DNA of 64,000 nt from assembly GCA_964354375.1 (NCBI GenBank), contig CAYGZQ010000002.1, positions 44,866 through 108,865 on the forward strand, given 5' to 3'. The notes beneath the pieces are model-generated. The model worked only from the letters and a program-made list of their open reading frames with translations, had not been told where the DNA came from and did no database searches. The stretch comes from an uncultured Planctomycetota bacterium (GTDB lineage: Bacteria > JAJVIF01 > JAPKYR01). The position numbers and the translations under genes are program-made. Positions 1-42,947 of this stretch are shown piece by piece; position 1 is the first letter of the stretch; each line of letters begins with the position of its first letter.

Positions 1-578
1 TCAAGGAACGCAAGCGACGGACCGCACGCGGGGCAGCAGGTCGGCTGCGCGTGGAACCGACGATCGGACGGGTCCCGGTACTCTCGCGAGCACATTTCGC
101 ACATGGCGAATTCCAGCATCGTTGTTTTGGCGCGATCATAGGGAACATCCTCGATGATCGTGAACCGAGGTCCGCAGTTTGTGCAGTTGAGGAAGGGATA
201 ACGATAGCGAGGGTCTGCAGGATCGTACATTTCGCGAAGGCAGCCGTGGCACGTCGCGACGTCGGGACTTATCAGCACCCTCTCGCCCTCGATTGGAACG
301 CTCCGCCGGATCTCGAAATCCCTGAAACGATCCGCATCGTCGATTTCGGCAAGCTCATGATCGATGGACACAATCTGGGCCAGCGGCGGAGGCTCGGCTC
401 TCAATGCCGAGAGGAGGGATTCGAGTTTGTCCTCAGGGCCGTCCGCTACGATCTCCACTCCGCGCGAATCGTTGACCACCCAGCCCGTGAGGTCGAAACG
501 CCCCGCGAGCGAATGCACGAATGGCCGGAACCCGACCCCTTGCACGACGCCTTTTATGTGGACATGAAGGCGATACAT
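1..578 (-). CDS. hypF: [NiFe]-hydrogenase maturation carbamoyltransferase HypF, N-terminal part (partial; gene runs off window start)
   Basis: Own minus-strand translation from ATG at 578: MYRLHVHIKGVVQGVGFRPFVHSLAGRFDLTGWVVNDSRGVEI... (acylphosphatase-like domain), followed by two Zn-finger modules CHGCLREM..CTNCGPRF and CEMCSREY..CPACGP typical of HypF. No stop before position 1. Not in the ORF track because it is incomplete. Confidence 0.75.
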   Translation of the reverse strand, partial: MYRLHVHIKGVVQGVGFRPFVHSLAGRFDLTGWVVNDSRGVEIVADGPEDKLESLLSALRAEPPPLAQIVSIDHELAEIDDADRFRDFEIRRSVPIEGERVLISPDVATCHGCLREMYDPADPRYRYPFLNCTNCGPRFTIIEDVPYDRAKTTMLEFAMCEMCSREYRDPSDRRFHAQPTCCPACGPSLAFL

Positions 579-586
579 GTCAGACC

Positions 587-671
587 TCACCCCACCTCAC
601 CCCCTAACCCCCTCTGTACCTCACCCCCTAACCCCCTCTCCACCCTGTGGAGAGGGGGACTGGGGGTGAGG
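587..671. repeat. GC-rich REP-like palindromic element (half copy 587-620 plus full hairpin 621-671: CTCACCCCCTAACCCCCTCTCCACC / GGAGAGGGGGACTGGGGGTGAGG)
   Basis: Imperfect inverted repeat seen directly. Related copies at 24945-24995 and 42893-42947. This copy is read through by the 3' end of the tgt-fusion ORF. Confidence 0.7.
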
Positions 672-2578
672 ACAAAAAACAGCTCCTCCGCAAACTCGAC
701 CTTCGTTTGACGGAACTCAAGACCATCGGTAATCGACTCAAGCGTGCTCTCGTAGTTCTCTCTCATCCCCTTGTCACGACCACCGAACGACGATGTCGGG
801 AACGAGACAACAATGTGCTTCGAATCGATTCCCTCTATCAACCTTCTGCTGGACCCTTTTTCCTGTTGCTCGAGGGTAGGGACAGTCTTGAGCAGGAACG
901 CGACATCGGCCTGTTCGGACGGCGGCTGCCCGACTACATCCCGGCATTGCGCTTCGCCCTTGATCTTTGCCGGACGGAAAAATCGGTTCAGGAGGTCCAC
1001 GATGCGTCCGTCAATGTCGAGGGCGACATACTCCGCATCTTTGCCCAGCCCCATCCAGGGAATTGCGAACGGCCCGAAGCCGCAGGCGATGTCGATTATG
1101 CGCGATGGTGTCCCGGTGATCTCGAAAAGAGAAGGGAAGATGCGGTCGAGTACGGGCAGACGCTCGGACGTCGACCGATGACCTGCCAGAATCTTCCGGC
1201 ATAACGGCTTGATTCCGTCCGGGTCGGGGTCTTTCTCGAACTCGTCAAGCAAACCCACGGCGTAGTCGTAGCCGAAGGGATCGATGAACGCAGCGTAGAC
1301 CTGGTGCAGTTTCTTCTTCGCGATCTTGACGGCTTCCTTCTCGGTCCGGGATTTCGCGGACGCCCACTGGACCGCCCTCGCGATCGTGTCCTCGCAAAGA
1401 TGCCTGTATTTCCGGCTTCGTTTCAGGGATTCGACTATCGGCTTCGTGTCGATCGCCAGTGAAACAGGCGCAACCTCGCCGAGTCGAGCTTCCCCGGAGC
1501 CGTTCGCGAGCATTCCCATCAGGCGCATGTAGAATCTGAGGTTATGGATGGTCGCGAGCCGGTATGCCAGCGGGTCGTCCACATTGAACAGGTGGTGGAG
1601 GAACGATCTCGAATAGCGGCGGCAGCAGAGGCAATCGCATGATTCGTCCACCGGTTTCCGGTCGTCGGCGTATCGCGAATCCTGGAGGAAGACTCTTGAA
1701 TGGAAGCTCGGGGCATCGAGCCTGAGAGGGTCGGGATTTCCCTGGAAGACGTACAGGCGTTTTCGTCGCGCATCGCGGGTGGGAAATGCCCCGTCGAACA
1801 GGTCGTAGCCCATGCGAACGCAGGAAACGATATGATCCGGACTCGCGATCCCCAGCGCGAACTTCGGGAACCCCTCCGGGATCAACCCTGCGACAAGCTC
1901 GACAGACTCGACCAGTCGGCGATCCTCATCGATCGGCCAGCCGCCGTAGCCGTAGCCGTCGAAACCGATCTCCAGCAGCCTCTCGGCGCATTCGCGCCTG
2001 AGGGACTCATCCTCGCCCCCCTGGATGACCGCAAACAGAAGCGGCCGGGAGTCCTGAAGGCGTTCGCTCGCGGCTATGCGTGCGACGAACTCCGTCTTGC
2101 ATTCGCGGGCCCACAGGATTGTGTTCTCGACACTCTCGCGATGCCTCTCGGGGGGCTCCCCCGGATGCATGCAGTGGTCCAGGCAGATCATCAGGTCCGC
2201 CCCAAGCTGGAACTGCCTCTGTATCGACTTCGCAGGAGTGAGAGTGACTCTCTTCGCGCCTTTCGAGGCGCGATAAGCGAAGCCATCCGGGGTCACTTCG
2301 CCCAGGGCGGGATCCTTTGCGAGGAGCGAGTATATCTGGAACCCGCCGGAGTCCGAAACAATCGGGCGGTTCCATCCCATGAATCCGTGGATTCCGGACG
2401 CGGCCAGGATTCGCACGCCGGGCCTGGTAAGAAGATGGAAGGTGTTGACCACGAGGCCCGTTACGCCGCAGTTTTCGAGGTCGGACGAGTCGACCGACTT
2501 GACGACAGCCCGGGTGGCGTCCGGAAGAAAGGCCGGCAGAGGGAGTGCGCCATGAGGTGTCTTAAGCTCCCTGGACAT
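587..2578 (-). CDS. tgt: Fusion protein: queuine tRNA-ribosyltransferase (Tgt) domain + C-terminal FmrO/Rmt-like class I SAM methyltransferase domain (16S rRNA m7G1405 MTase-like)
   Basis: 663-aa ORF. N-terminal ~400 aa carry Tgt hallmarks (VNTFHL, SDSGGFQ nucleophile region, Zn site CDCLCC...HH). C-terminal ~260 aa carry an HRSTSERL motif and the SAM-binding motif IIDIACGFGP, resembling aminoglycoside-resistance-type 16S rRNA methyltransferases. The last ~25 codons are encoded by the REP-like palindrome. Confidence 0.6.
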   Translation of the reverse strand: MSRELKTPHGALPLPAFLPDATRAVVKSVDSSDLENCGVTGLVVNTFHLLTRPGVRILAASGIHGFMGWNRPIVSDSGGFQIYSLLAKDPALGEVTPDGFAYRASKGAKRVTLTPAKSIQRQFQLGADLMICLDHCMHPGEPPERHRESVENTILWARECKTEFVARIAASERLQDSRPLLFAVIQGGEDESLRRECAERLLEIGFDGYGYGGWPIDEDRRLVESVELVAGLIPEGFPKFALGIASPDHIVSCVRMGYDLFDGAFPTRDARRKRLYVFQGNPDPLRLDAPSFHSRVFLQDSRYADDRKPVDESCDCLCCRRYSRSFLHHLFNVDDPLAYRLATIHNLRFYMRLMGMLANGSGEARLGEVAPVSLAIDTKPIVESLKRSRKYRHLCEDTIARAVQWASAKSRTEKEAVKIAKKKLHQVYAAFIDPFGYDYAVGLLDEFEKDPDPDGIKPLCRKILAGHRSTSERLPVLDRIFPSLFEITGTPSRIIDIACGFGPFAIPWMGLGKDAEYVALDIDGRIVDLLNRFFRPAKIKGEAQCRDVVGQPPSEQADVAFLLKTVPTLEQQEKGSSRRLIEGIDSKHIVVSFPTSSFGGRDKGMRENYESTLESITDGLEFRQTKVEFAEELFFVLTPSPPLHRVERGLGGEVQRGLGGEVG

Positions 2579-2588
2579 CGGGTTAAGG

Positions 2589-3299
2589 TCACGGTTCGGT
2601 CCGAATGAACTTCGGATTGTTGCCCGCGATAACTATGGTCACTTCGCCCTTCACTTTCCTGTCGACGAACTGCTTGATCAAGTCGGACAAGTACCCCCTG
2701 TGAGTCTCCTCGAACATCTTGGTCAGCTCGACGCAAACGGCGGCCCTGCGGTCGCCGAGGACCTCCAGGGCGGCCTCAAGGACCTTGGAGAGCCGCAGGG
2801 GGGACTCATAGATCACCAGCGTATGGCCCAAGTCCTTTTCCATCTCGAGGGAGCGACGTCGAGCGCCCGGTTTCCTGGGCAGGAAGCCGAGGAAAACGTA
2901 GCTGTCGGTCGGCAGCCCGGAGGAGAGAAGCGCGACCGGCACCGCGCTAGCGCCCGGCACAACAACAACCCCGATCCCCTTCTCGACGGCCTCGCTTATC
3001 AGCCTGTAGCCTGCGTCGCTGATCCCGGGATAGCCTGCGTCGGAGCAGACAGCTACCGAGTTCCCCTGCTCCAGAAGCTTGATGATGCCGGGCGCGGATG
3101 TCTTCTCGTTCGCCTCGCGATAGGAGATGATTCGTCTGGGGGCGGGGATATTGTGCCGGTCGAGGAGGATTCTGGTCCGGCGGGTATCTTCACAAGCAAG
3201 GACATCGACCTCGCCCAGAATGCGTATCGCTCGGAGGGTTATGTCCTCAAGGTTGCCTATGGGAGTGGCGATAATGTATAAAGTTACCTCGGACGGCAT
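2589..3299 (-). CDS. rsmI: 16S rRNA (cytidine1402-2'-O)-methyltransferase RsmI
   Basis: TLYIIATPIGNLEDITLRAIRILGEVDVLACEDTRRT... tetrapyrrole-methylase fold typical of RsmI. Confidence 0.85.
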   Translation of the reverse strand: MPSEVTLYIIATPIGNLEDITLRAIRILGEVDVLACEDTRRTRILLDRHNIPAPRRIISYREANEKTSAPGIIKLLEQGNSVAVCSDAGYPGISDAGYRLISEAVEKGIGVVVVPGASAVPVALLSSGLPTDSYVFLGFLPRKPGARRRSLEMEKDLGHTLVIYESPLRLSKVLEAALEVLGDRRAAVCVELTKMFEETHRGYLSDLIKQFVDRKVKGEVTIVIAGNNPKFIRTEP

Positions 3300-5024: not shown

Positions 5025-5272
5025 GCCCGAACGTAAGGGGCTGTTGAAAAACCTACTTCGATGCTGAATCGCGTGGCACCCTCAGGCGGAAAGGCTGCGT
5101 AAGCAGGCTTTCTGCCTGGGGGTGCTCGATCTATTAGCCCCTTTATTCATGCGGCATTCAGGTCGTCGGCTCAGCACCCCCAGGCTCGAGGACTCGCCTG
5201 AGGGTGCCACGCCTGATATGCCATCCTTGCGCAAAACTGGATTTTTTCAACAGCCCCTCACGGTCGGGCCCC
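5025..5272. repeat. MITE-like nested palindromic element (~250 bp)
   Basis: Perfect inverted pairs GGGGCTGTTGAAAAA (5037-5051)/TTTTTCAACAGCCCC (5244-5258) and GCGTGGCACCCTCAGGCG (5071-5088)/CGCCTGAGGGTGCCACGC (5196-5213); outer GGCCCGAACGT/ACGGTCGGGCC. Sequence modules are shared with the hairpins at 13761-13870 and 16737-16823. Confidence 0.65.
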
Positions 5273-5382
5273 GGAAACGGCGAATCGCAAGTCCACCGGT
5301 TCATCTGGATCATGCGAAGTGGTATATTGTTAATGTCAGGACCAATGGCGCTGCCCGCGTGCGGGCGGACAGGAGGAATCGC

Positions 5383-5910
5383 GTGATAGTTGAAGGATTT
5401 CGTTTCTCAAAAATCGTTTTCGCAGCAGCCCTGCTTTCGCTGATCACTGTGTCGCTCACAGCGTGCCCGCTTGGAGACCAGCGACGGGCTGCCTGGATGT
5501 CCCGCGCAAAAGGGACGCTCCGATCGATCGGCTCGTCGCAATTGGCTTACCAGAGCTCCAATGCGGACAAGTCGTACGGCACGTTCGAAGACCTCCAGAG
5601 TGCGGAGTATGTCGCGCAGGGCTATACCCTCGAAAACATGATAGAAGCGTACACCATCAGTTGGACCGCCTATTCGTCGTCCCCTGCGGAGGAAGCCGGC
5701 TCGGAGGAGGGGAAGCCGGTGTTCGAGGACACGATGGGTTCGACGAAGACGCACGGGCCCTATGACAGATTCACGATCATCGCCTATCCGGTGGCGAGCT
5801 TCGGCGCTCTCTGCACGTTCGCCGTCACGGAAGACCAGGTGGTGAGGGTCTACAATCCCGACAACCGCAACAAAGAGGCTGACATAAAGACCTGGGACCC
5901 GATATTGTAG
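5383..5910 (+). CDS. Small putative lipoprotein, function unknown
   Basis: GTG start preceded by AGGAGG (5371-5376). Signal peptide with lipobox (FSKIVFAAALLSLITVSLTAC). The upstream part of the track ORF covers the MITE-like element and is probably not coding. Confidence 0.5.
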   Translation: MIVEGFRFSKIVFAAALLSLITVSLTACPLGDQRRAAWMSRAKGTLRSIGSSQLAYQSSNADKSYGTFEDLQSAEYVAQGYTLENMIEAYTISWTAYSSSPAEEAGSEEGKPVFEDTMGSTKTHGPYDRFTIIAYPVASFGALCTFAVTEDQVVRVYNPDNRNKEADIKTWDPIL

Positions 5911-7659: not shown

Positions 7660-8652
7660 ATGGTCTACAGCACAAGCGAGCCCTATGCGAGGAGAGGCGG
7701 ACTCCCGTCGCCGGAGATCGACACCTTTTCTTTATCGCTTTGCGGGGCGGAAGAGCAGGCGTTTGTTCATGGCTGCAACGCCCTGCTTCAGGGCAGGGAG
7801 GAGCGGGCGCTTTTCGAGTTTCGGAAGGCGGCGCGATGCACCAGGGAATTCATGGACGCGTGGTTCATGGCGGGATTCATCGAGCTTGCGAACGGCCGCG
7901 CCGAGAACGCCCGCCAGGCGTTCCTGCGGATTCTTCAGGACGAGCGCCCGTTTTTCGGGCTCCACATCCTGAGGTTCATGCCCCGCTTCCGGGCACATGT
8001 CAACCTCTTCGAGGATTTCGTTTTCCATATCATGCCCACGACCCCGGAGGTCGCCGCCGCGACCGCAAGGCTCTACATGATCGAGGAACGAGTCAAAGAG
8101 GCCAAAAAGATCATTCATCCGGCGTTCAGGGAGTACGGGGACAACACGGCTGTGCAGGTGATGTGGGCGCAGGTCATGATCGAGGATGATGCTCCGGACG
8201 CAGTGATCGACGAGATCGACAGGAGCATTCAGTTTCACAAGGGCAAAACCGAGACGGACCTGCTGTTGACCTACCTGGTCGGGCGCGCGTTTCTCGACAA
8301 GGGCGAATTCAGGACGGCCGTCTCGCACTGGGAGAGCATTTTCCATCACGCGACCGGCAAGAATCCGCGCCTGATTGACCGGTTTTCCATTTTTCTCGCG
8401 AAGGCATACGAATCCAAGGGATTCCTGCTGAATGTGTACGATATTCTCCGGAAGGTGAAGGACTCGACCATGCCGTACGATCCGGGCGTCTCGGTCGACT
8501 TCAAGCTCGGGCAGATCGTGGAGAAAATCAACACCTACAGGCGTCAGGGAATCAGAACCCCGCTTGAATTCGAGGGTGTTCACGACTTCCCGAGATGGAA
8601 GGATTCGGAAGGATACCTGGAGCTGGACGGTCCGGGCACCGCGATTCCGTAG
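7660..8652 (+). CDS. Hypothetical protein (helical, TPR-like composition)
   Basis: 330-aa ORF with ordinary protein-like composition. The antisense ORF 7732-8583 is Arg-rich and judged a shadow. Confidence 0.45.
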   Translation: MVYSTSEPYARRGGLPSPEIDTFSLSLCGAEEQAFVHGCNALLQGREERALFEFRKAARCTREFMDAWFMAGFIELANGRAENARQAFLRILQDERPFFGLHILRFMPRFRAHVNLFEDFVFHIMPTTPEVAAATARLYMIEERVKEAKKIIHPAFREYGDNTAVQVMWAQVMIEDDAPDAVIDEIDRSIQFHKGKTETDLLLTYLVGRAFLDKGEFRTAVSHWESIFHHATGKNPRLIDRFSIFLAKAYESKGFLLNVYDILRKVKDSTMPYDPGVSVDFKLGQIVEKINTYRRQGIRTPLEFEGVHDFPRWKDSEGYLELDGPGTAIP

Positions 8653-8672
8653 ACGACGCTTTCCGAATCGCC

Positions 8673-8996
8673 ATGGGTAACAGGCTGAAATACATCGAGG
8701 ACGGCGGCGCGAAGCCTCTCAAAATCGAGGAGCCGGAACCTCTCGAGGAGAAGGTCAACTATCCAGTCCTGGCCCGGTACGATTTCGCGGGGAACGGTCC
8801 CCGTCCCGGCGTACTGAGGGACGAGTGGATGTACACGCAGGCGGGTCTGCTCCTCACGAAGGGCGAGAGGCTCAGCCCGCCGCTCAAGAGGATCGGATGG
8901 CTCCTGATCCGGCTTGCGATCGGTCTCGCTCTGGTTTATCTGTTTCTGCACGGAAGCAGCTTCGACTGCATGGGAACGCGCCACACGTGGCGCTAG
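8673..8996 (+). CDS. Small hypothetical membrane protein
   Basis: ATG at 8673. C-terminal TM segment IGWLLIRLAIGLALVYLFL. Confidence 0.35.
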   Translation: MGNRLKYIEDGGAKPLKIEEPEPLEEKVNYPVLARYDFAGNGPRPGVLRDEWMYTQAGLLLTKGERLSPPLKRIGWLLIRLAIGLALVYLFLHGSSFDCMGTRHTWR

Positions 8997-9072
8997 GGCG
9001 TTACCCATGCGGCCGGCAGTCTGCTCTGATAATGAGAATTTCCGGGTTGTACCCGAAGAAAGGAGGAAGAAG

Positions 9073-9471
9073 ATGAGCGGAGGTTTTATGATGCCGCCGG
9101 TCCCGATCCCGTTCATGGAGATCCCGACAGCGATTGTGGCCCTCGGGATGCTCGGGTTCGAGGTGGTGCAGGGCATCAACACCCTCGTGAACGCCAACCG
9201 TAACGAGCTCGTGGAGAATATTCTTGTCAACGAGAACGGGCTGAGGATCGGGGTCCGCACGAACAGAGAAGGCAGGCTCGAACTTCTCGTCGATGAGGAC
9301 GAGCTGAGAGAGAAGGAGGGTCTGGAGATCAAGGAGTTCCATCAGCAGATCCAGAAGAACTACGCGTACGTGAAGCTGATGGAGCGTCTCAAGGCTGAAG
9401 GCTACACCGTGGTGGAGGAGACCGAGGAAGCCAACGAAACGGTCAGAGTGGTGGTGAGAAGATGGCGATAA
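9073..9471 (+). CDS. Small conserved hypothetical protein, DUF1257/Ycf35-like (tentative)
   Basis: ATG preceded by AGGAGGA. 132 aa ending ...VRVVVRRWR, reminiscent of Ycf35-family C-termini. Its stop overlaps the start of the next small gene. Confidence 0.4.
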   Translation: MSGGFMMPPVPIPFMEIPTAIVALGMLGFEVVQGINTLVNANRNELVENILVNENGLRIGVRTNREGRLELLVDEDELREKEGLEIKEFHQQIQKNYAYVKLMERLKAEGYTVVEETEEANETVRVVVRRWR

Positions 9472-9740: not shown

Positions 9741-11789
9741 CTACAGCCTGAAGATCCGGAGCCCGTTCATGTCGTCCCACATATACGCGTAGCCCCCCGA
9801 CACGGCCAGCCTGGAAGAGAGCACCTGCCAGGTCATCATCTCATCCGTCGTGAACGGACTCTCGACCGCAGATTCGGGAAGATCGATCCTGACTGCTCTG
9901 ACAGCCCGATCGCCCGGGGCGTCCGAATACGCATACCGGTCCGATAGGGCTACCGACCATCCCCACGGAGAAAGGGTGTTCACTGTGGACGCCGATTCAG
10001 GGGGGTCGATGTCAACAATGTGAAGCAGGGAGCCTGCCGGCCCCCACCCAAGATCGCCGATCACTGTGCACGCAGCGTACGCGTATCCGTCCGAAATGAC
10101 CAAGTCACCAGTCACTTCCGGCCACACGATGTCGTTCACAACGGATGCCGATTCCGGAGGATCGATGTCGATTATCTGAAGGCCGCCTCCGAAGAACTCT
10201 GCGCCTTCCTGCCAGCACATTCCCCCCACATACGCATAGCCCCCCGACACAGCCAGTGTAGAGGAAAATCCAGGAATGGCCACGCTCTTGATCACCGAGG
10301 CAGACTCGGGTGGGTCGACGTCGACTATCTGGAGCCAGGACTCTCCCGGTTTCTCCGGACCGAACTCTCCGGACCCTGCAGCCGCAACATACGCGTACCC
10401 ACCCGACGCCGCCACTCCCATCGAACCCCCGGAGATTTCAACGGTCTTCACTATGGATGCAGATTCGGGAGGATCAATGTCGATTATCTGGAGGCGGAAC
10501 TCCGTCAAGACATCGGGATCCGGACCTCCCCCCACACTGACAAACGCATAGCCACCCGACACAGCCAGACCGATGGCTCCCGCCGCATCAACGATCTTCA
10601 CTATCGACGGAGATTCCGGAGCATCGAGATCCAGTATCACAAGACCGGACTCTGTGTCCGCAACATACGCGTAGCCTTCCGAGACCGTGACGTCCGCGAC
10701 TGACCACGACTTGTCCACGCAGGCGACGATTGATGTAGATTCGGGAGGATCGATATCGACCACATTGAGACCGGCAGCCATGTCGGCCACATACGCGTAA
10801 CCCCCTTCGATCGTCACATCCACCGCAGAGGGCATGTCGACGGTCTTCACGACCGACGCAGAATCGGGAGGATCTATATCGAGTACCTGGAGGCCGAGCT
10901 CTCTATTCGCCACGTACGCGTAGCCTCCCGACACTGCTACGCAAACAGCGTCTCCCAGGGTCTCCACGGTTTTCACAATCGAGGCAGACTCGGGAGCGCC
11001 GATATCGACAATCTGGAGGCCTTCATCGAAGTCCGCCACATAGGCGTAAGGCCCTGATATGTCCACACCTTGGGCGAGCCCCGTTGTGGGCACAGTCGTC
11101 AATATCGACGCGGACTCGGGAGAATCGATGTCCACAATCTGAAGTCCGCCGAGACCGTCGGCCACATAAGCGTATTCGCCCGACACGGCTACACTTTGGG
11201 CTATGGCCGGCATATCAACTGTTTTCACGACCGACGCAGACTCGGGAGGATCAACGTCGATTAAGTGGAGTCCGCCGACGCCGGAGACCACAAAAGCGTA
11301 CCCATCCGACACGTCCACACCCTGGGCGACCACCGGTGCAGAGATGATTTTCACTACGGACGCAGACTCGGGAGGATAAATGTCAACAATCACAAGACCC
11401 GAGAAACCCGCCGCAACATACGCATAGCCACCCGATACCGCTACCCCGATGGCCTCTCCCGGCGAGGTCTCGCCGCCGGGCTCCATCGGCATGACGACTT
11501 TGTTGACCCAGACAGGGTTCGATGGGTCGGAAATGTCGAAGATGTGAAGGCCGTTTGGGCCACCGGCCACGTAGCAGAGGGTCCCGTCGACGCACATGGA
11601 CCTTACCGAGATGTTCAGCCACGGAGGGGTGATATCCACTGGGTTGAAGGATGCCGCATCCTGCGGAGCTTCAGGCGAATCCGAGCCTCCGTACGCCCTG
11701 CCGGTGAAAGAAGGGCTCACCAGAATCAGCAAGAGGACCGCGGGCAGAATCGCAATTGCCCGAGTCGCGGCCAACCTGTTCTTTCTCAT
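9741..11789 (-). CDS. Secreted LVIVD-repeat beta-propeller protein
   Basis: Sec signal peptide MRKNRLAATRAIAILPAVLLLILVSPSF. More than 12 repeats of the GYAYVA...GLxIVDIDPPESASxV type (LVIVD repeat). ATG at 11789 preceded by GGGAGGA. Confidence 0.75.
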   Translation of the reverse strand: MRKNRLAATRAIAILPAVLLLILVSPSFTGRAYGGSDSPEAPQDAASFNPVDITPPWLNISVRSMCVDGTLCYVAGGPNGLHIFDISDPSNPVWVNKVVMPMEPGGETSPGEAIGVAVSGGYAYVAAGFSGLVIVDIYPPESASVVKIISAPVVAQGVDVSDGYAFVVSGVGGLHLIDVDPPESASVVKTVDMPAIAQSVAVSGEYAYVADGLGGLQIVDIDSPESASILTTVPTTGLAQGVDISGPYAYVADFDEGLQIVDIGAPESASIVKTVETLGDAVCVAVSGGYAYVANRELGLQVLDIDPPDSASVVKTVDMPSAVDVTIEGGYAYVADMAAGLNVVDIDPPESTSIVACVDKSWSVADVTVSEGYAYVADTESGLVILDLDAPESPSIVKIVDAAGAIGLAVSGGYAFVSVGGGPDPDVLTEFRLQIIDIDPPESASIVKTVEISGGSMGVAASGGYAYVAAAGSGEFGPEKPGESWLQIVDVDPPESASVIKSVAIPGFSSTLAVSGGYAYVGGMCWQEGAEFFGGGLQIIDIDPPESASVVNDIVWPEVTGDLVISDGYAYAACTVIGDLGWGPAGSLLHIVDIDPPESASTVNTLSPWGWSVALSDRYAYSDAPGDRAVRAVRIDLPESAVESPFTTDEMMTWQVLSSRLAVSGGYAYMWDDMNGLRIFRL

Positions 11790-11839
11790 GTTTGCTTCCT
11801 CCCATTGTCGAAGCGTTGCATAGGACAACGCAAAGGACG

Positions 11840-13889: not shown

Positions 13890-16724
13890 GTGTATATGCG
13901 AGCTGCGAAGCGGTTTTGGGTCATTTTTCTGCTTCTCATCATGGGTTGCGGCGGACGAGGGGGTATTACACTGCCGAATGCCGGTGAAAATCCCCAACCC
14001 GACCGTCCCGGATCGGCTGCAAGAACGATCTGGGGCATGTGGCATGTGAGCATCGACTCGAACACCCTCGACGCGTCGATTGATCCGATACGCGGGGCGC
14101 AGTTCACGGCCAATGTCACCAGGTTCATGCAGCCGCCGATCAGCCCGATCAATCTCCTCAGCATCACAGTCGACCCGGAGAGCGATCCGCCGAACGGCTA
14201 CTTCGTGCTGTACATCAGCGCCCATCATCCGTTCCCGGGGATTGCCAGGCTGAGCGGGTTCGATGTGAGGGGGATTCTGTTCTCGGACGGATCGATCCAG
14301 GGAATCCACGACCCGGGCGTGCTTCGCGCAGGTCCAGGGGACACTCGGCTGGTGAACGCGGACGGCTACACCCGCTGGTGGAACTGGCCGGAGTTCATGA
14401 CGTACGGGAAGATTTTCGGAGCCACTCAGGGTGCATCCGCTCCAGTATGCCAGCCGACATCCACCGTGAACGGCTACAAGTACTTCGCGGACGGTCTCGA
14501 TTCCGATCAGCCTGTCGCGTCTCTCGATCCCCTGTCCAGAGGATTCTTCAGGACCGTGCCGGGAGTGAACACGCGCCGCTACGAAGTCCGGTTCAAGCAG
14601 GTGGGCGGACAGACGGTTTTCGCTTTCAACTACGCGATCGACGCGAGCTGGTCGCTGCCCGACCCTGCGTATGAGCCGGACTATCCGGTCGAGGCATTCG
14701 ATCTGTCGGCGAACTGCCGGGAAGCGTTCAATGTGTCGGTGGACGACACCGGATCGACCGCTTGGTACGTGGACGAGACGCATAGCGGTGGCGAGTTGGC
14801 GCTCCGGATAGAGGTATTTGACTGGCAAGGCGGAGCAAGCGGAAATGTTCCGGGCGAAGTGTCCGGCATTTTCCTTGAGGGCGGAGTTTTGCCGGGCGAG
14901 TATGATGTTTTAGCGAACGCGGCGATCCTTCCGGGCACAACCGCGAACTCGTCGATTTACGAGGTGGAAATCGCCGATTTGAGCCTGACAAGCTCAGGAC
15001 TATTCGAGCTTTTCGGGACTGTGGAGAGCTCGAACCCCAACACTTACAAACCCCAGGTACCCAATGGGGATGCGTTTGAGTATCCCGCCGCACCGCTAGC
15101 GGCTTACTTCACGTGCAGGGTTTCGGTGCTCGACGCCGCGCCTTTGGAAATCAGCATCACCGGGATCGAGCCGGACGAGGGCGTCCCCGACTGCACTCCG
15201 GAGCATGTGGTGATCACAGGCGATGGTTTCATCGACGGCGCCACAACATTCCGGCTGGAACGCGCAGCCGAGCCGGATATCGCAGCGGAGAATGTCCAAT
15301 GCATCAGCGTGAGCACGATCGAGGGCGATCTTCTTCTCGCCGGAGCTCTTCCGGGACCGTGGGACGCGGTGGTCGAGAATCCCGGGGGAGCAACCGACGC
15401 GCTTGATGACGGTTTCACCGTTTTGCCCGCGATCTATGTCGACGGCGACAACGCCGGTGACCCGCTCATGGACGGCACGCCGGATCATCCGTTCGACACG
15501 ATCCAGAAGGGGGTCGACGCCGCGTACGGGTCGAGCGACGAGCCGGTCATCGTCGATCAGTGCCTGTCGAACTATGCCCCGTTTACGCTCCACGATAACA
15601 GCCATGTCATCGGCTGCAACTGGAACGACGGATCGGGATGGCCCACAGTCACGCAGGAAGACCAATTCACCTACGGACCCAATGTCAATAACGTCACGAT
15701 CGAGGGGCTGTTCTTCGATCTCTACCTTCACACCGGCACGTACGATCCCAATTGGCACTATTATTATTCATACGGTGTGTATTTCGATCAGGGCACCGGC
15801 ATCACAATTACGAGATGCAAGTTCTCGGGATACGGGACGGTGCAGTTCACCTATTTCGTGCATTTCCTCCGCTCGTCCGATGTGGAAATCTCGTACTGCG
15901 AGTTCACGAATCTGTTTCGTCGCGGACCGACCAACGAGGCCCGGATGTTCAGCGTCCTGGATTGTGAGAGCGTAACGGGCCTCCTGTGCCATCATTGCGA
16001 GTTCCACCACATAGGTTACGATCAGGCGGATTCGGGCGAGTACGGCAGCCAGACCGAAGTGATAAGGACCTACGGCTGGGACCCGCATACATCGAACGAG
16101 GACTTTCACAATCTTCTCATCTACGATCTTTTTGACAAGACAAACGCCGTCGGGCAGACTCAGAATTACCTTTCCGCTTTCGGCATTTATCAGCCATCGG
16201 GAGACTATTTCAAGCTCCATAACGTTACGGTCGACGACATACGTCACGCGGACCCCCCGTCCGACACGATCGTGGAGTCGGGACACGTGAACGCAGCATA
16301 TATGGCGCAGGTATGGGCAGAGGTCAGGACATGGAAGAACAACATTGTCTCGAACATCCAGCCCACGGATGAAAGCATGGAGAGCGGGGTCAGCTCGTAT
16401 TATGGCTGGTGGGTCGACAACTACTGCGATCCGCCCCCCTCTCCTCAGCCAATGGACTATTCTCTCTGTTCCAGCCTGGGGAAACCGCTGCCCAACGGAG
16501 CGAATACGTGGCAATGGGATTCGGGATTCATCAACCAGTGCAGCGCGGGTGTTGGGTGCTACCAGAATTCGCAGGATATCGATCCGATGTACGACATGAC
16601 CCCCGGTTCCGGCTTCTACCATCCGACCAATCCGCTGATAGCGTCCGGCGCGGACGATGGGTCCGAGATGGGGGCGTTTGGAGGTCCGGAAGGCGACTGG
16701 ATTCCGCCGAGCCAGTTGGAGTAG
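13890..16724 (+). CDS. Large surface lipoprotein, paralog A: conserved N-terminal domain + C-terminal right-handed beta-helix (PbH1-like) region
   Basis: Lipobox LLIMGC. N-domain motifs HHPFPG..SGFDVRGI, ADGYTRWWNWPEF, NGYKYFADGL, NYAIDASW, FDLSANCREAF are shared with four other ORFs in the window. The C-terminal part has NVTIEGLFFDL / GITITRCKFSG / VEISYCEFTN beta-helix-like repeats. Confidence 0.7.
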   Translation: MYMRAAKRFWVIFLLLIMGCGGRGGITLPNAGENPQPDRPGSAARTIWGMWHVSIDSNTLDASIDPIRGAQFTANVTRFMQPPISPINLLSITVDPESDPPNGYFVLYISAHHPFPGIARLSGFDVRGILFSDGSIQGIHDPGVLRAGPGDTRLVNADGYTRWWNWPEFMTYGKIFGATQGASAPVCQPTSTVNGYKYFADGLDSDQPVASLDPLSRGFFRTVPGVNTRRYEVRFKQVGGQTVFAFNYAIDASWSLPDPAYEPDYPVEAFDLSANCREAFNVSVDDTGSTAWYVDETHSGGELALRIEVFDWQGGASGNVPGEVSGIFLEGGVLPGEYDVLANAAILPGTTANSSIYEVEIADLSLTSSGLFELFGTVESSNPNTYKPQVPNGDAFEYPAAPLAAYFTCRVSVLDAAPLEISITGIEPDEGVPDCTPEHVVITGDGFIDGATTFRLERAAEPDIAAENVQCISVSTIEGDLLLAGALPGPWDAVVENPGGATDALDDGFTVLPAIYVDGDNAGDPLMDGTPDHPFDTIQKGVDAAYGSSDEPVIVDQCLSNYAPFTLHDNSHVIGCNWNDGSGWPTVTQEDQFTYGPNVNNVTIEGLFFDLYLHTGTYDPNWHYYYSYGVYFDQGTGITITRCKFSGYGTVQFTYFVHFLRSSDVEISYCEFTNLFRRGPTNEARMFSVLDCESVTGLLCHHCEFHHIGYDQADSGEYGSQTEVIRTYGWDPHTSNEDFHNLLIYDLFDKTNAVGQTQNYLSAFGIYQPSGDYFKLHNVTVDDIRHADPPSDTIVESGHVNAAYMAQVWAEVRTWKNNIVSNIQPTDESMESGVSSYYGWWVDNYCDPPPSPQPMDYSLCSSLGKPLPNGANTWQWDSGFINQCSAGVGCYQNSQDIDPMYDMTPGSGFYHPTNPLIASGADDGSEMGAFGGPEGDWIPPSQLE

Positions 16725-16841: not shown

Positions 16842-19800
16842 TCAATACAGATCGTAAATCTTGAGACCGATCCGCGTGTGCATTTCGTAAAGGATGCCCT
16901 TGTTGTCAAGAAGTCCGGTGTTGGGGAAACCGGGGCAGGGAGTGGTCACCTCGCCGAAGACCTGCGGATCGTTGGGCGGCCAGAGATTGACCGCGACCGT
17001 CGGGCTGACGTCATCGGCGACGTAGGCATTCTGGCTGTCGATTGCCATGAATTTCATGCTGGGCGCGTACGGAAGCGTGACTGATCCGACAACGCTGGGC
17101 GCATTGCCGGTGCTGATGTCGAGGACCTCGAGGGTATCGCTTGTGAGCATGTACAGGTAGTCGCCGCGCACCTTGAGCTCGTTGATATTATGAGCCATTG
17201 GAAGGCTGTTCACCTGCTGCGGTGCATCAATGTTGCTGAGGCTGAAGACCAGGAGGGTTTGTCCGTTCGAGCCATACATGTAGGAGCCTTTGAGCGCCAA
17301 ATGCCACGCCGGCCAGGGAATCATCACGGGCCCCAGCGCTGTAACCGTCGGGAAAGAGCTGATGTCATAGACATATATCAGCCCATTGAGCAGACTGACG
17401 TAGCAGCGGGCGTCCGTAAGGGCCGGGGAGATGACATCCCCCCCGAGGTTCTCACTATATACGGCAAGCAACTCAGGGATGGCCCCCCCGTCGACGAGGG
17501 CAAAGCTCTGTCCCTGGCTGGATCCGATCGCAAAGACATCACCGAGTACAGCGATAGAATCGAAGTACAACCCCGGGATGGGCCAACTTACTGCGACAAC
17601 CGGGTGAAGGACATCGGTGTTGTCCAGGAAAGTGAGCGCCCCGAAAGAGCCGTCGCTCTGGCAGAAAATGCCGTAGTCTCCTGTGAAGGCACCGCAAATG
17701 GGGGCGTTCACGCATTGGGCGTAGGTCATCAGTATCGGACTCAGCGGTATGCTGAGATCATAGACCGCGAAGCCGCCATGCTCACAAACACACATCAGAA
17801 TATCCCCGTCCGCGTCCAGGGATATCGGGAGGGAAAACGTATCCTCGCTGGTCACCACAGTGGGATTATCAGGACTGGAAAAGTCGACGACCGTGACGCC
17901 TTCGTCACCGTCGGCTGCGTAGCACGTGGTTCCATGGACACAGATGTTCACTCCGTCACCCGGCAAATCGGCATAGCCGTGAGCATTAAGCTGCGTAACC
18001 GGCGAATAGCTCAGGACACTCACTCCGGAGACGGGACCGGGCATCACGTAGCTGTGGACAAGATACCAGCCCGAGACCTCAAGGTCCTTGAATTCAGCTC
18101 CCCCACCGGAATAGGCATTGCCGTTCGGGGTGACATCCAGAGGGTTCTCGACCACGAAAACCCTGAGTTGGGCTGGGAATAACACGGCAAGCGAAGTATG
18201 GGAACCCTCGGGGTCAATGACTTCGAGGTCAATGGGTTTCTCGTCGATCACGAAGTCGCTCACCCAGACGGGAGCCGCGGGATTGACCAGGTAATCGTAG
18301 ATGCTCACGCGCCAGTTGAGGCCCGTCCCTGCGGCTACATACATGTATCGGGAATCCATCGCGATATCCGCCACCCCGCTATTAACCACGAGCGCATCCT
18401 CGGTCAGCTCGGGCGCGGCCGGATCCGTGAAGTCAACCATGTCGATTCCCGCCGGATTCGCGGTGGGGTCCTCCCACGAGTACATGTAGGGATAATCAAA
18501 CGCCGGCTCGGAGCCACATTTGTCGTAGATTCGGGACACAAATACAGCACCGCCATAGTCGGACACGTCGTAAACCCAGTATCCGACCACTCCTGCCAGA
18601 AAGGCGTAGTCGCCATGCTTCTTGACCCAGATTGCGTCACAATCAAGATTCCAGGGCGTGATGTCGACCGGATTGTCGGGAATGGTGTCGACGATGCTGA
18701 AGTCCGATTCCAGAAGGTAGACCATTGCGCCCCCTCCGGAGATAGTGAACTGGTCGACTCTGAGCCTTACGTAGTAAGTGCCGGGACCCAGGTCCAGCGG
18801 ATCAAGCTCGATTTTCAGGATGCCGCCGCCCACGATGGTCGATTTGTCGAGCAGTTGCGCCTGTGAATCGTAGAACTCTATCTTGGCCTTCTGGGCATCT
18901 TGATACCATCGGATTTCTCCTTCCGGTCTGAAGCCGGGGGCGATCTCGAAGAAGTACCAATCCTCGTAATCGACAACGTCGCACAACGTGTCCTCGATCT
19001 GATCGCCGGGCCCGATCGGCTCCGCCTCCGGCATGGAGTTGTTCATGTCGGCGTCGCACGGGGGATCGACAATGTCGACCGTAAGAGCCTGCCAGGATGA
19101 AATCGCCGATGATACTGCCGCTGGGTAGCCGAGGCCCTGGTCGTAGGTCTGGCCGTCGTTGGATTCTGCCCTGACCGCGACCAGGGCAGTTCCCGGCTGC
19201 GACGGAACCGCCTTGCCCGTCAGGTCGACTGAGTACTGCGCCTTGATCGGGGTCTCGCCCACCAGCGTGCCGTCAACCACTCCCGCATAGAGATCGGGGG
19301 CGTACGCGCGCACGAGATTGACCTGTCCGGCGATGTCAGCCGCAGCCTGTCCCTGCCAGTCATGGACATTAGTCGCAAGCCTCAGAACTCCGCCCTTCAT
19401 GCCGGTCTCGCTGTCATAGAATAGCGTGTTGACCGTCGGCACGACGACCACATCGTACGGCTCGGGCTCATTCGCACTCAGCGGGAAATCATCCGGGACA
19501 GCGGAAGGCGGATTCGGACTCGGCGCGGCCCACGATGCATCGACGGCATAACCATAGATAACCTGGGGTCCGGGGTTCATCGGAAATCTGATCAGGTACC
19601 TTCTCGTGTTGCTGCTTCCCGCGGTGAAAACACCGCGTCCGGTGTCGGCATCCATCGCGGTGTTGTGGACAGAGCCCATGCTGTCCGTCGCCTCGAGCGC
19701 GTCGGCGAAATATTTGTACGGGTTCACAGTCGCGGTGAGGCTGCTCGCCGACGAGTTCGTCAGGACCCCCTGCGTGTAGCCGAACATCCCCGACTGAGTG

Positions 19801-40277: not shown

Positions 40278-42905
40278 TTGGAGACGTCAAGGCTTAGAGA
40301 GCTGTTCATCGACTTCTTCCGCTCGAAGGATCACCACATAGAGCCGTCGGCGAGCCTTGTTCCGCCCGCGGACGACCGCTCGCTTCTCCTCATAAACGCG
40401 GGGATGGCACCGTTGAAACAGTATTTTCTGGGTATGGCGAAACCGCCGTCCACGCGCATCGCGTCGTGCCAGAGATGCCTCCGCACGAACGATATCGACG
40501 AGGTCGGCAGGACTCCCCGACATCTGACGCTCTTCGAGATGCTCGGCAATTTCTCGTTCGGCGATTATTTCAAGAAAGAGATCATCGTCTGGTCATGGGA
40601 ATTCGTGCGCGACTGGCTGGACATCCCCGAGGACCGGATGAGGGTGAGCGTTCACGAGAAGGACGATGAGGCCTACGGAATCTGGGAGAAAGAGGTCGGC
40701 GTAAGACGAGACTGGATTTATCGACTCGGCGACAATGATAACTTCTGGTTCATGGCTGAGACCGGACCGTGCGGTCCGGACAGCGAGATTTTCTACGATC
40801 TGGGCGAGGACCTGGGCGCTGACCTCACCCCCGAAACCGGCGGCGACAGATGGGTGGAAATCTGGAACCTCGTTTTCACGCAGTTCGACCGTCAGCCGGA
40901 CGGGACTCTGATCCCGCTGCCCAAGAAAAACGTGGACACCGGCATGGGCCTCGAAAGAACCGCCATGGCGCTGCAGGGAAAGCAGTCGGTGTTCGAGGCC
41001 GACTGTTTCGCCCCGATTATCGGGACTTTCCGCAACGACACTCCCGCGGAGATCCTCGAAAGCCGAAGTTACATCAAGGCCGGAATCAACTCGCTCTATG
41101 TCGTGGCGGATCATGTCCGCGCAGTGACGATGCTGATCGCGGACGGCGTGTATCCGGGCAACGAGGGTCGCGGGTATGTTCTGAGGCGATTATTGAGACG
41201 CGCGCTGGTGCACTTGAGAAGACTCGGTCAGCCGGAGGGCGGGCTACTGAAGGCGTTTCCCATCGTGCTCGATCTTCTCGGCGAAACCTACCCTCTTCTT
41301 GTGGAGCGCCGGGAGCATATCGAGAAGCTGGTCACGGTCGAGGAGGACAATTTCCTGAAGACCCTGGGCGCAGGCGTGGCGCGACTCGAAAGCGCAATAG
41401 AGAACCTGTCCCAAGCGAATGTGATCCCCGGCGAGATCGCGTTCGAGATGTTCGACACGTACGGTGTGCCGCTCGATGTGACGGTCGAGATGGCGCAGGC
41501 TCGCGGCATGAAGGTCGACGAAAGAGGCTATCAGGAAGCGCTGGATGGAGCGCGCAAACGCAGCCGGGTGGTTACCGAGGAACTCCTGGGCGCCGATCAG
41601 GATGCTCGCCATGCCGTTCAGACCACCGGCAAGACCGAGTTCACCGGCTACGGGGAGCTCGACGAAACCGCCACTTTGGTCGAGTACAATCCCGAGCATG
41701 GTTTCGTTCTGCTCGACCGTACGCCTTTCTATGCGGAGAAGGGCGGACAGGTCGGGGACACGGGAAAGATCCGATTCAATGGCGGCGAGCTCACTGTGGT
41801 CGACACGCAGTATGTCGGGGATGTCGTGGTGCACAAAATCGATCCCTCCAAGACCGAGGGGGACCCGTCGGCGATCAAGCCGGGCGACCCGGTTGAGGCA
41901 ATCGTGGATGGGAACCGCCGTCGCGCCATCCGTCGCGCTCATACGGCCACTCATCTCCTTCACGCGGCGCTGAGGCATGTTCTGGGCGAGCATGTACATC
42001 AGGCCGGATCGGTTGTCGAGCCGGACCGCCTGAGGTTCGATTTCTCTCACTTCCAGCCGCTGACCAGGGAGGAGGTCCGAAAAATCGAGGACTGGGCGAA
42101 CGAGAGAGTGTTTTCGGAAATCAGTGTTCATTGCAGGGAAGTGCCGTACGATGAGGCGGTGAAAGCGGGCGCGATGGCGCTGTTCGGCGAGAAGTACGGT
42201 GAGAGGGTGCGCATGGTCTGGGTGGGCGAGCATGAAGACATGCCTGTCAGGGGGAGATCGGAGACGATCGAGCTTTGCGGCGGAACGCACGTGGACAATA
42301 CGGGCGTTATCGGGATGATCAAGGTGATCGGCGAGGAGTCGGTGGCGAGCGGGGTAAGGCGTATCGAGGCGGTCACGGGTCGACGGGCGTACGAGCTTGC
42401 GCAGGGCGAAGATGCAACCCTTCGTGTAATCTCGGATGAGCTGCGAGTGCCGCTAACCTCTATCGAGCGCGGCGTCGCCAGGCTTGTCGAAAACATGAAG
42501 CGTCTGGACAAAGAAAAAAAGGACCTGGAGCAGAGACTGATAAACGGTCAGACGGGAAACGTCTCCGAGCAGGTCTCGATCGGATCGGCTACGGCGGTTA
42601 TTTTTCCGGCCCAGACACTGGCACCCGACGCTGTGGGGAAAATGCTCGATCGGGCTGTCGAGAAGGAAGCGGTCGTGATCGCGTTCGCAGTCACTTCTTA
42701 CGAGGACAAAGGCACGTTGCTGATAAGCTGCTCAAAAGCGGCGGTAAATGCGGGTTATCATGCGGGAAACCTTGTGAAGGCGGTGTCGGAGTCGATGGGC
42801 GGTCGAGGTGGCGGCAAGGCTTCATTTGCGCGCGGCGGTGTCGATGCATCAAAGTATGAAGAAGGCAAAGCGGCTTTCCTGAAGGCGCTAGACCTCACCC
42901 CCTGA
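40278..42905 (+). CDS. alaS: Alanine--tRNA ligase
   Basis: LRELFIDFFRSKDHHIEPSASLVP, TNAGM-like block LINAGMAP, FEMLGNFSFGDYFK, editing-domain HTATHLLHAAL, C-terminal DHHA1. TTG start after a GAAGGA RBS. Confidence 0.9.
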   Translation: METSRLRELFIDFFRSKDHHIEPSASLVPPADDRSLLLINAGMAPLKQYFLGMAKPPSTRIASCQRCLRTNDIDEVGRTPRHLTLFEMLGNFSFGDYFKKEIIVWSWEFVRDWLDIPEDRMRVSVHEKDDEAYGIWEKEVGVRRDWIYRLGDNDNFWFMAETGPCGPDSEIFYDLGEDLGADLTPETGGDRWVEIWNLVFTQFDRQPDGTLIPLPKKNVDTGMGLERTAMALQGKQSVFEADCFAPIIGTFRNDTPAEILESRSYIKAGINSLYVVADHVRAVTMLIADGVYPGNEGRGYVLRRLLRRALVHLRRLGQPEGGLLKAFPIVLDLLGETYPLLVERREHIEKLVTVEEDNFLKTLGAGVARLESAIENLSQANVIPGEIAFEMFDTYGVPLDVTVEMAQARGMKVDERGYQEALDGARKRSRVVTEELLGADQDARHAVQTTGKTEFTGYGELDETATLVEYNPEHGFVLLDRTPFYAEKGGQVGDTGKIRFNGGELTVVDTQYVGDVVVHKIDPSKTEGDPSAIKPGDPVEAIVDGNRRRAIRRAHTATHLLHAALRHVLGEHVHQAGSVVEPDRLRFDFSHFQPLTREEVRKIEDWANERVFSEISVHCREVPYDEAVKAGAMALFGEKYGERVRMVWVGEHEDMPVRGRSETIELCGGTHVDNTGVIGMIKVIGEESVASGVRRIEAVTGRRAYELAQGEDATLRVISDELRVPLTSIERGVARLVENMKRLDKEKKDLEQRLINGQTGNVSEQVSIGSATAVIFPAQTLAPDAVGKMLDRAVEKEAVVIAFAVTSYEDKGTLLISCSKAAVNAGYHAGNLVKAVSESMGGRGGGKASFARGGVDASKYEEGKAAFLKALDLTP

Positions 42906-42947
42906 CCCCCTCTCCGCAATTGCGGAGAGGGGGCTAGGGGGTGAGGT
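42893..42947. repeat. REP-like perfect palindrome CTCACCCCCTGACCCCCTCTCCGCAA/TTGCGGAGAGGGGGCTAGGGGGTGAGG overlapping the alaS stop codon
   Basis: Seen directly. Likely acts as a transcript-end hairpin (no T-tract). Confidence 0.7.

Follow-up and report, generated by a model that had tools for sequence, protein, structure and literature searches.

The closest described relatives of the two halves of the protein reported here are the bacterial tRNA-guanine transglycosylase Tgt (EC 2.4.2.29), known from Zymomonas mobilis, Escherichia coli and Thermotoga maritima, and the Arm/Rmt/Sgm methyltransferases of the FmrO family, which are found in aminoglycoside producers and resistant pathogens. The substrate switch of canonical Tgt is the Leu231/Ala232 peptide, whose flip is assisted by Glu235: through a water molecule, the NH group of Ala232 addresses N7 of guanine-34, and the aminomethyl group of preQ1 is bound by the carbonyl group of Leu231 (PMC3660597). 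Retargeting of the Tgt core to other sites in nucleic acids and the addition of extra domains to it are exemplified by archaeal ArcTGT, which acts on tRNA G15 and has C-terminal PUA domains, and by the DNA transglycosylase DpdA. For the methyltransferases, the electron cryo-microscopy structure of RmtC on the 30S subunit has yielded a list of critical residues, which dock the enzyme on 16S rRNA helices h24, h27, h44 and h45 and set N7 of G1405 by S-adenosylmethionine (SAM) (PMC10288597). In a 64,000-nucleotide (nt) stretch of DNA from an uncultured Planctomycetota bacterium (contig CAYGZQ010000002.1, positions 44,866 to 108,865; hereafter, the window), a Tgt domain and an FmrO-type methyltransferase domain are joined in one protein. 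Both domain families are well known; the link between them appears to be undescribed.

The fusion gene lies on the minus strand at positions 587..2578, where the open reading frame (ORF) listing of the window contains one unbroken ORF of 663 amino acids (identical protein, P0001). The initial annotation, made from the sequence alone and without mention of the strand, described a single in-frame fusion with four motifs, and all of these (IVSDSGGFQ, ESCDCLCC...LHHLF, GHRSTSERL and RIIDIACGFGP) were found in the translation. Residues 1-361 (1496..2578) form the Tgt domain, a TIM-barrel with a zinc subdomain, which was recognized by Pfam, PDB sequence matching, AlphaFold2 (AF2) modelling and Foldseek. 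A 13-residue linker (residues 362-374; 1457..1495) connects it to the FmrO/Rmt-type SAM methyltransferase domain (residues 375-636; 671..1456), which includes the N1/N2 subdomains for 30S docking. Separate profile matches bore out the proposed identity of each half: Pfam TGT covers residues 4-355 (E 9.8e-91; 304.9 bits, cut-off 26.3), and Pfam FmrO covers residues 387-635 (E 2.7e-56; 191.3 bits, cut-off 27) and positions 1-254 of its 255-position profile. The AF2 model, built on an alignment of 75 sequences, has a mean predicted local distance difference test (pLDDT) score of 91.7 and contains two well-folded domains, each with a pLDDT of >90, whereas the linker (pLDDT < 50) and residues 645-663 of the tail are disordered. 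The expectation of a single two-domain protein was thus upheld as far as the folding of both domains is concerned but not as a rigid unit: because the predicted template modelling score (pTM) is only 0.61, we draw no inference on the inter-domain geometry, and no fixed arrangement of the two domains is predicted. Several long ORFs run antisense to the fusion gene on the plus strand within 647-2608 (for example, 1700-2608, 302 amino acids; also 51-710, 219 amino acids). They are typical shadow ORFs of G+C-rich coding DNA and not genes.

The Tgt half most closely matches T. maritima Tgt among PDB sequences (2ash; E 4e-67), with Z. mobilis Tgt likewise among the closest structures, and its model superposes on 1q2r and 2ash with Foldseek template modelling scores of 0.84-0.86. 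It also passes the superfamily model TIGR00449. When the 120 best Tgt matches, fused or not, were mapped on Z. mobilis numbering, the catalytic residues D102 and D280, the base-recognition residues D156, Q203 and G230, together with G229, C158, R286 and R289, and the zinc ligands Cys318, Cys320, Cys323 and His349 were all present in the window protein and invariant in 119-120 of the 120. The homodimer hot spot of canonical Tgt, which we take to comprise Phe92, Trp326, Tyr330, His333 and the Lys52-Glu339 pair (residues that agree with the mutant names in PDB entries among the Foldseek matches), is also maintained, with F92 in 114, Y at position 326 in 113, Y330 in 116, H333 in all 120, R or K at position 52 in 119 and D or E at position 339 in 118 of the 120 sequences. 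In view of its conserved residues, the Tgt half almost certainly has transglycosylase activity. Conservation of the tRNA-binding surface was judged by two features, the dimer interface and R286/R289, and their retention fits a substrate such as the tRNA anticodon loop.

The binding pocket, by contrast, departs from that of bacterial Tgt. Residues 212-217 (1928..1945) read G-G-W-P-I-D in place of G-G-L-A-V-G, and among the 120 best matches the motif GGWP[ILV] stands where canonical Tgt has GGL[AS][VI]GE. Position 231, canonically Leu, is Trp in 117 of the 120; position 232, canonically Ala, is Pro in every one. Glu at position 235 is found in just 17 of them, the window protein having G-G-W-P-I-D-E, and both Val45 and Ser287 are replaced by Asp in 119. 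Since Pro232 has no NH group, the canonical peptide switch cannot operate in these GGWP-type enzymes. Other differences from bacterial Tgt are the change of FDEC to LD[HY]C, the variable positions following the pocket motif (GGWP[ILV]xx for GGLAVGE) and an 11-residue insertion before the zinc site. The genomic partners differ as well, being 16S helix-44 methyltransferases for GGWP Tgt and queA/yajC/secDF for bacterial Tgt. Tgts with this pocket from different phyla share 43-61% identity with each other and only 31-39% with canonical Tgts, and a canonical-pocket Tgt also occurs in a Chloroflexota bacterium, where neither fmrO nor rsmI lies nearby (the one canonical Tgt examined). By these comparisons of sequence, the GGWP and canonical Tgts are separate subfamilies rather than products of lineage drift. 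The term 'bacterial-type Tgt' used in the initial annotation is therefore apt for the family and its catalytic residues but not in the sense of the standard enzyme, because the window protein belongs to the GGWP subfamily and scores below the cut-off of the Tgt equivalog model TIGR00430. Membership in archaeal TgtA (70.6 bits against a cut-off of 350) or DpdA (E 0.047) was rejected, and unlike in ArcTGT and DpdA, the domain appended to the Tgt core of the window fusion is a complete separate enzyme.

The methyltransferase half matches the sisomicin-gentamicin resistance methylase Sgm (3lcu) with an E value of 5e-46 at approximately 40% identity, and with 4e-78 in a profile comparison. Residues were counted, for the 108 proteins adjacent to a Tgt, in an alignment of 162 FmrO sequences to which RmtC, Sgm, RmtB and 6pi9 had been added. 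The following equivalents of critical RmtC residues are strongly conserved in this set: K20 (K or R in 101), Y21 (107), K47 (K or R in 103), R50 (K or R in 105), H54 (107), Y60 (Y or F in all 108), S107 (108), D160 (D or E in 108), K204 (107), R241 (R or K in 98) and M245 (103). The window domain keeps all 11 of these, as well as the N248 equivalent, with Phe at Y60, a substitution tolerated by RmtC (PMC10288597). At Lys20, Tyr21, Arg39, Lys47, Arg50 and His54 it has K, Y, K, K, K and H, and at the docking positions, Arg39 included, 84-99% of the 108 homologues carry the same or an equally charged residue. The SAM-binding residues equivalent to Ser107 and Asp160 are kept, in a domain with the class I Rossmann fold. 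The equivalent of K236 is variable across the subfamily and is Ser in the window.

The likeness to Arm/Rmt/Sgm extends over the full length, including the N1/N2 subdomains, the residues for SAM binding and 30S docking and most of those for G1405 positioning. Because the docking residues and most of the positioning residues are kept, the simplest inference is that the C-terminal domain still methylates 16S G1405. In other respects this type differs from the enzymes of aminoglycoside producers and resistant pathogens: it is chromosomal, occurs in environmental phyla of non-producers, shares its operon with housekeeping rRNA methyltransferases, is fused or adjacent to a Tgt and does not conserve the K236 equivalent.

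A search of 5.8 billion proteins identified nine Tgt::FmrO fused proteins, eight in addition to that of the window, so that the same fusion does exist in other genomes. A look-up of the exact protein sequence of the window gave no contig. P0002-P0006 are 58-62% identical to the window protein (P0001) over the full length, P0011 and P0039 are approximately 40% identical to it, and P0266 is an N-terminally truncated relative of P0039. The linkers of these proteins vary in sequence and in length, from 13 to approximately 80 residues. Relationships were judged by nearest-neighbour identities. The Tgt domains of P0001-P0006 share 64-73% identity among themselves and at most 60% with any unfused Tgt, whereas the nearest relatives of the Tgt domains of P0011 (74%) and of P0039 (63%; also of P0266) are unfused Tgts. 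Because P0011 and P0039 are closest to unfused Tgts and P0001-P0006 form a clade of their own, the fusion, as judged from these identities, arose at least three times independently, and in the lineage of the window it was kept through substantial sequence divergence.

Tgts of the same pocket type are also fused to two other methyltransferases. Fusions to RsmI were found in P0257, P0383 and P0384, in the more distant P0388 and in the partial P0402, and in one locus (L168) fmrO directly follows the gene for an RsmI::Tgt fusion. P0403 is a fusion to RsmH, and the corresponding locus L169 has the layout rsmH::tgt - fmrO - rsmI. Every typeable Tgt fused to RsmI or RsmH has the WP pocket; the partial P0402 was not typeable. 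Two further architectures were encountered. P0462 (673 amino acids) and P0475 (685 amino acids; Leptospira kobayashii) combine PF05430, an MnmC-type SAM methyltransferase domain, with a Tgt that has the canonical GGLAVGE pocket; this is a pairing for tRNA wobble modification that is unrelated to the FmrO module. In P0361 (581 amino acids), an RVT_3 (RNase H-like) domain comes after the Tgt domain.

Inspection of three standalone FmrO homologues revealed that each gene lies directly downstream of a TGT gene in otherwise unrelated surroundings. Two surveys extended this observation in opposite directions. In the first, an FmrO-domain alignment was compared with one genome per GTDB species, which yielded at least 558 loci; among the best 80, which were examined, tgt lies within 4 kb in 64, on the same strand in 62 of these, and 61 of the 64 Tgts were typed as GGWP. 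Five of the 16 loci that do not contain tgt simply have no flanking sequence. In the second, an alignment of GGWP-type Tgt was compared with metagenome contigs, and fmrO adjoins tgt in 61 of the 80 loci obtained, nearly always 10-110 nt downstream. Of the remaining 19, 12 reach a contig edge within 900 nt, which raises the proportion to approximately 61/68, or approximately 90%. Genes for other 16S rRNA methyltransferases are recurrent neighbours within 3 kb: rsmI in 35 of the 80 FmrO-seeded and 28 of the 80 Tgt-seeded loci (approximately 40%), RsmF-like genes (m5C1407) in 11 and 4, and RsmH genes (m4C1402) in 2 and 3, respectively. The operon genes are typically spaced by 6-90 nt. Gene order depends on the lineage, being rsmI-tgt-fmrO in many phyla and fmrO-rsmI-tgt in Anaerolineae, and the flanks are unrelated.

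According to record titles, the module is present in at least 10 phyla. Carriers include Chloroflexota (with the cultured Dictyobacter aurantiacus S27), Latescibacterota, Armatimonadota, Nitrospiraceae, Planctomycetota, Acidobacteriota/Aminicenantes, Gemmatimonadetes, Spirochaetota, Hydrogenedentes, Adiutricales and Firmicutes (L169 and L171). Complete genomes with the module include those of D. aurantiacus S27 (NZ_BIFQ01), an armatimonadote (CP070816.1), a latescibacterote (OZ252228.1) and a member of Aminicenantes (CP070627.1). Among the approximately 125 adjacent tgt/fmrO pairs of the fetched loci, not one is fused; the gene pair is common, and its fused form is rare. The window fusion, which the initial annotation had treated as an isolated oddity, is a rare covalent form of a conserved (rsmI)-tgt-fmrO module. 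No second tgt was found in the window or in loci L001-L167 (approximately 1.7 Mb), a result that is uninformative, because less than one would be expected by chance.

Some loci, like those of bacterial Tgt, include genes of queuosine metabolism. A QueE-like radical-SAM gene lies directly upstream of tgt in eight loci of Latescibacterota and Gemmatimonadetes (QueE families are the best match, below their cut-off), and the queuosine-precursor transporter YhhQ (TIGR00697, above the cut-off) is encoded in four Chloroflexota loci. These neighbours, together with a single QueA, point to a 7-deazaguanine base as the substrate of GGWP Tgt. The sole QueA gene near the module (L121, 2848-4029) is interrupted by an in-frame stop; the two resulting ORFs each match PF02547, and the gene may be a pseudogene or reflect an assembly error. 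In four loci of Latescibacterota, among them L012 (7831-8856), the QueE-like gene is separated from tgt by a gene for a GFO/IDH/MocA-family oxidoreductase, which may be an extra module member in this phylum. In L012 (1642-4323 and 6399-6848), an ammonium-transporter gene is seemingly broken by a DDE_3 transposase, and an IS200-like transposase gene is located just upstream of the queE-like-tgt-fmrO cluster. Second FmrO paralogues are present in the same locus as the tgt-linked one in L019 (710-1486), L041 (6305-7060), L048 (11735-12511), L068 (12403-13170) and L081 (18139-18912). They are 31-37% identical to the window domain, and the two that were scanned match the Rmt family model with 174 and 203 bits. 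Some members of the group of FmrO genes that are not adjacent to tgt but lie 300-3,000 bp from it, a group to which these second paralogues belong, have His at the position of RmtC T207, Leu at M245 and Gly at R241.

With a probability of about 0.5, we favour the reading that the fusion is a bifunctional enzyme with two independent activities, the formation of N7-methylguanosine (m7G) at position 1405 of 16S rRNA and the insertion of preQ1 or a related deazaguanine at position 34 of tRNA. A bifunctional RNA-modification enzyme was one of the options raised in the initial annotation, and it is the one best suited to the retention of catalytic residues in both halves. The C-terminal domain would dock on the 30S subunit as RmtC or Sgm does and methylate N7 of 16S G1405, an activity that would confer on the organism an intrinsic insensitivity to 4,6-disubstituted deoxystreptamine aminoglycosides. 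The N-terminal domain would act as a dimeric guanine transglycosylase that replaces guanine with a precursor of the 7-deazaguanine type, preQ1 at position 34 of tRNA being the simplest case, and its pocket is presumably fixed in one state, in which Pro at position 232 would remove the NH group that is aimed at N7 of guanine in canonical Tgt. The two activities would be co-expressed with that of RsmI, and all three would tune the same few angstroms of the decoding centre, namely the wobble base pair and helix 44. A physiological rationale for the tgt-fmrO pairing may be provided by Vibrio cholerae, in which tgt is reported to be needed for aminoglycoside tolerance (PMC11703503).

Several observations weigh against this reading. 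Each half scores below the threshold of its equivalog model: 286.5 bits against 306.75 for TIGR00430, and 226 bits (229 for the domain alone) against 250 for the NCBIfam model of Rmt family 16S rRNA (guanine(1405)-N(7))-methyltransferases. In P0001-P0006, the fused clade of the window, conservation is poor at the positions equivalent to RmtC K236 and R241. Given the lost switch and the Asp residues at positions 45 and 287, the base or the RNA substrate of GGWP Tgt may differ from that of the canonical enzyme. GGWP Tgt may also be a paralogue rather than the housekeeping enzyme for queuosine-34, as both types of Tgt occur in Chloroflexota. QueA is found near the module in only 1 of 167 loci, and its near-absence, like the specificity of the coupling for the switch-less pocket, is left unexplained. 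Finally, a two-way coupling of approximately 90% and the existence of three helix-44 methyltransferases as fusion partners do not obviously follow from mere co-regulation.

We regard as doubtful, though not implausible, a second reading in which GGWP Tgt would be a paralogue whose substrate is the small ribosomal subunit and not tRNA, and which would work on 16S helix 44 along with FmrO, RsmI and RsmH. In one version, FmrO would make m7G1405, the glycosidic bond would thereby be weakened, and Tgt would swap the cationic m7G for a 7-deazaguanine base; Trp231 would stack on the base, the absence of an NH group at Pro232 would suit the methylated N7 and Asp45 and Asp287 would balance the charge. 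The 80-90% coupling of GGWP Tgt with fmrO in both directions, neighbourhoods enriched in methyltransferases for 16S nt 1402-1407, the fusion of this Tgt type to FmrO, RsmI and RsmH alike, pocket changes exactly at the edge facing position 7 of the base, and the coexistence of GGWP and canonical Tgt at the phylum level all favour this view, and QueE-like and YhhQ neighbours would suit any enzyme that inserts a deazaguanine. To our knowledge, however, no transglycosylase has been described that acts on rRNA, and no rRNA that contains 7-deazaguanine. Furthermore, both the homodimer interface and R286/R289, which bind phosphate in the tRNA enzyme, are kept, G1405 lies in a C-G-U context, unlike the U-G-U required by Tgt, and the strongly conserved N7-positioning residues of FmrO fit m7G as the end product. 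AF2 gives no fixed domain arrangement, and operon neighbours can become fused without physical cooperation of their products. If such a ribosome-directed activity did exist, it would be categorically new, as a type of rRNA modification without precedent and perhaps also as a novel way of becoming insensitive to aminoglycosides; that the GGWP Tgts are in fact the first rRNA-acting guanine transglycosylases, tethered or adjacent to FmrO, RsmI and RsmH and placing 7-deazaguanine in the 16S decoding centre, perhaps via FmrO-made m7G1405, is a tentative proposal that we rate as rather improbable.

Alternatively, the fusion might be meaningless, a stop loss having joined tightly packed operon genes through a tolerant flexible linker, with the association reflecting only shared regulation of housekeeping RNA-modification genes. 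The rarity of fusion (nine proteins against none of the approximately 125 adjacent pairs), the variable linkers, the pTM of 0.61 and the fact that whichever gene adjoins tgt is the one fused to it (FmrO, RsmI or RsmH) are in keeping with this view. We consider it unlikely, because the P0001-P0006 clade retained the fusion while diverging to approximately 58-62% identity, and because the association has outlasted changes in gene order and unrelated flanks in at least 10 phyla and is specific to Tgts with the GGWP pocket; no such neighbours accompany the single canonical Tgt that was examined. Still less credence is given to a repurposed FmrO-like domain that would methylate tRNA, as the initial annotation suggested, or a 7-deazaguanine base handled by the Tgt domain. 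The covalent linkage or adjacency of the two domains, the variable K236 equivalent (Ser in the window) and a score slightly under the Rmt equivalog cut-off are compatible with repurposing, but the whole N1/N2 30S-docking region is present, the residues that contact h45, h24 and h27 (K20, Y21, K47, R50 and H54) and those that contact N7 of G1405 (K204) or insert into the h44 pocket (M245) are at least 93% conserved, and preQ1 has no N7 to methylate. An assembly or sequencing artefact, that is, a missed stop codon or frameshift between two genes, is scarcely credible: although P0001 was seen on a single contig, the eight other fused proteins (P0002-P0006, P0011, P0039 and P0266), drawn from distinct samples and from JGI, ENA, Logan and NCBI, share the domain order and a continuous frame.

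A literature search yielded no description of the Tgt::FmrO architecture, the GGWP subfamily, the rsmI-tgt-fmrO module or the fusions of Tgt to RsmI and RsmH; one earlier preprint mentions Chloroflexi homologues of Rmt enzymes that are uncharacterised. The present analysis defines a distinct and widespread Tgt subfamily that does not have the classical substrate switch and is gene-locked to homologues of the clinically important m7G1405 aminoglycoside-resistance methyltransferases. The module leads us to expect that 7-deazaguanine (queuosine-type) modification and the methylation of helix 44 are functionally connected at the decoding centre, and may be regarded as a genomic counterpart to the experimental effect of tgt on the aminoglycoside tolerance of V. 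cholerae. That FmrO/Rmt homologues sit in a housekeeping operon of at least 10 environmental phyla is relevant to the question of where the ArmA/Rmt genes came from and to the intrinsic aminoglycoside insensitivity of uncultured bacteria. The fused proteins are ready-made constructs for testing the cooperation of the two activities, and D. aurantiacus S27 is a cultured carrier of the module.

As the initial annotation had noted, the fusion gene is situated between hypF and rsmI, both of which were identified by profile. The rsmI gene, encoding the 16S rRNA C1402 2'-O-methyltransferase (2589..3299, minus strand; TIGR00096, 209 bits, cut-off 167.9), is the upstream gene of the operon, and its stop codon is located 10 nt upstream of the ATG of the fusion gene; rsmI is upstream of the fusion also in L001, L003 and L004. 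The 5' part of hypF (1..578, minus strand; Acylphosphatase and zf-HYPF domains) runs off the window, and its ATG lies 8 nt downstream of the stop codon of the fusion gene, with hypF at the equivalent position in L003. As it was present only in the window and L003, hypF was rejected as a member of the module.

The 3' end of the fusion gene lies inside a repetitive extragenic palindrome (REP)-like element (584..671) with 25-nt inverted arms at 619-643 and 647-671, which are 88% complementary, and one extra tandem copy of an arm at 594-617. The final 27 codons (residues 637-663), together with the stop codon (587..670, minus strand), are encoded by the palindrome, and the corresponding tail is found in no homologue. 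Remodelling of the C-terminus by a REP-like insertion, another proposal of the initial annotation, accordingly agrees with what we found. Because the methyltransferase still has its last conserved strand (…EELFFVL) in full ahead of the repeat-encoded tail, the repeat replaced the stop codon and left the domain undamaged; the insertion merely added a disordered 27-residue tail. The element was seen at just two sites in the 64 kb, the second copy (42893..42946) having two arms with one mismatch each, and five matches were observed against none in shuffled sequence. No copies were found among the fetched loci. An Rfam scan of the whole 64,000-nt window detected no family at the gathering score, and thus no tRNA, rRNA or riboswitch, preQ1 riboswitches included. 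Elsewhere in the window, several large ORFs (13890-16721, 5122-5907 and 8583-9332) have no Pfam match, and two genes on the minus strand (9744-11828, with seven repeats, and 16845-20291) encode large LVIVD-repeat proteins (Pfam PF08309).

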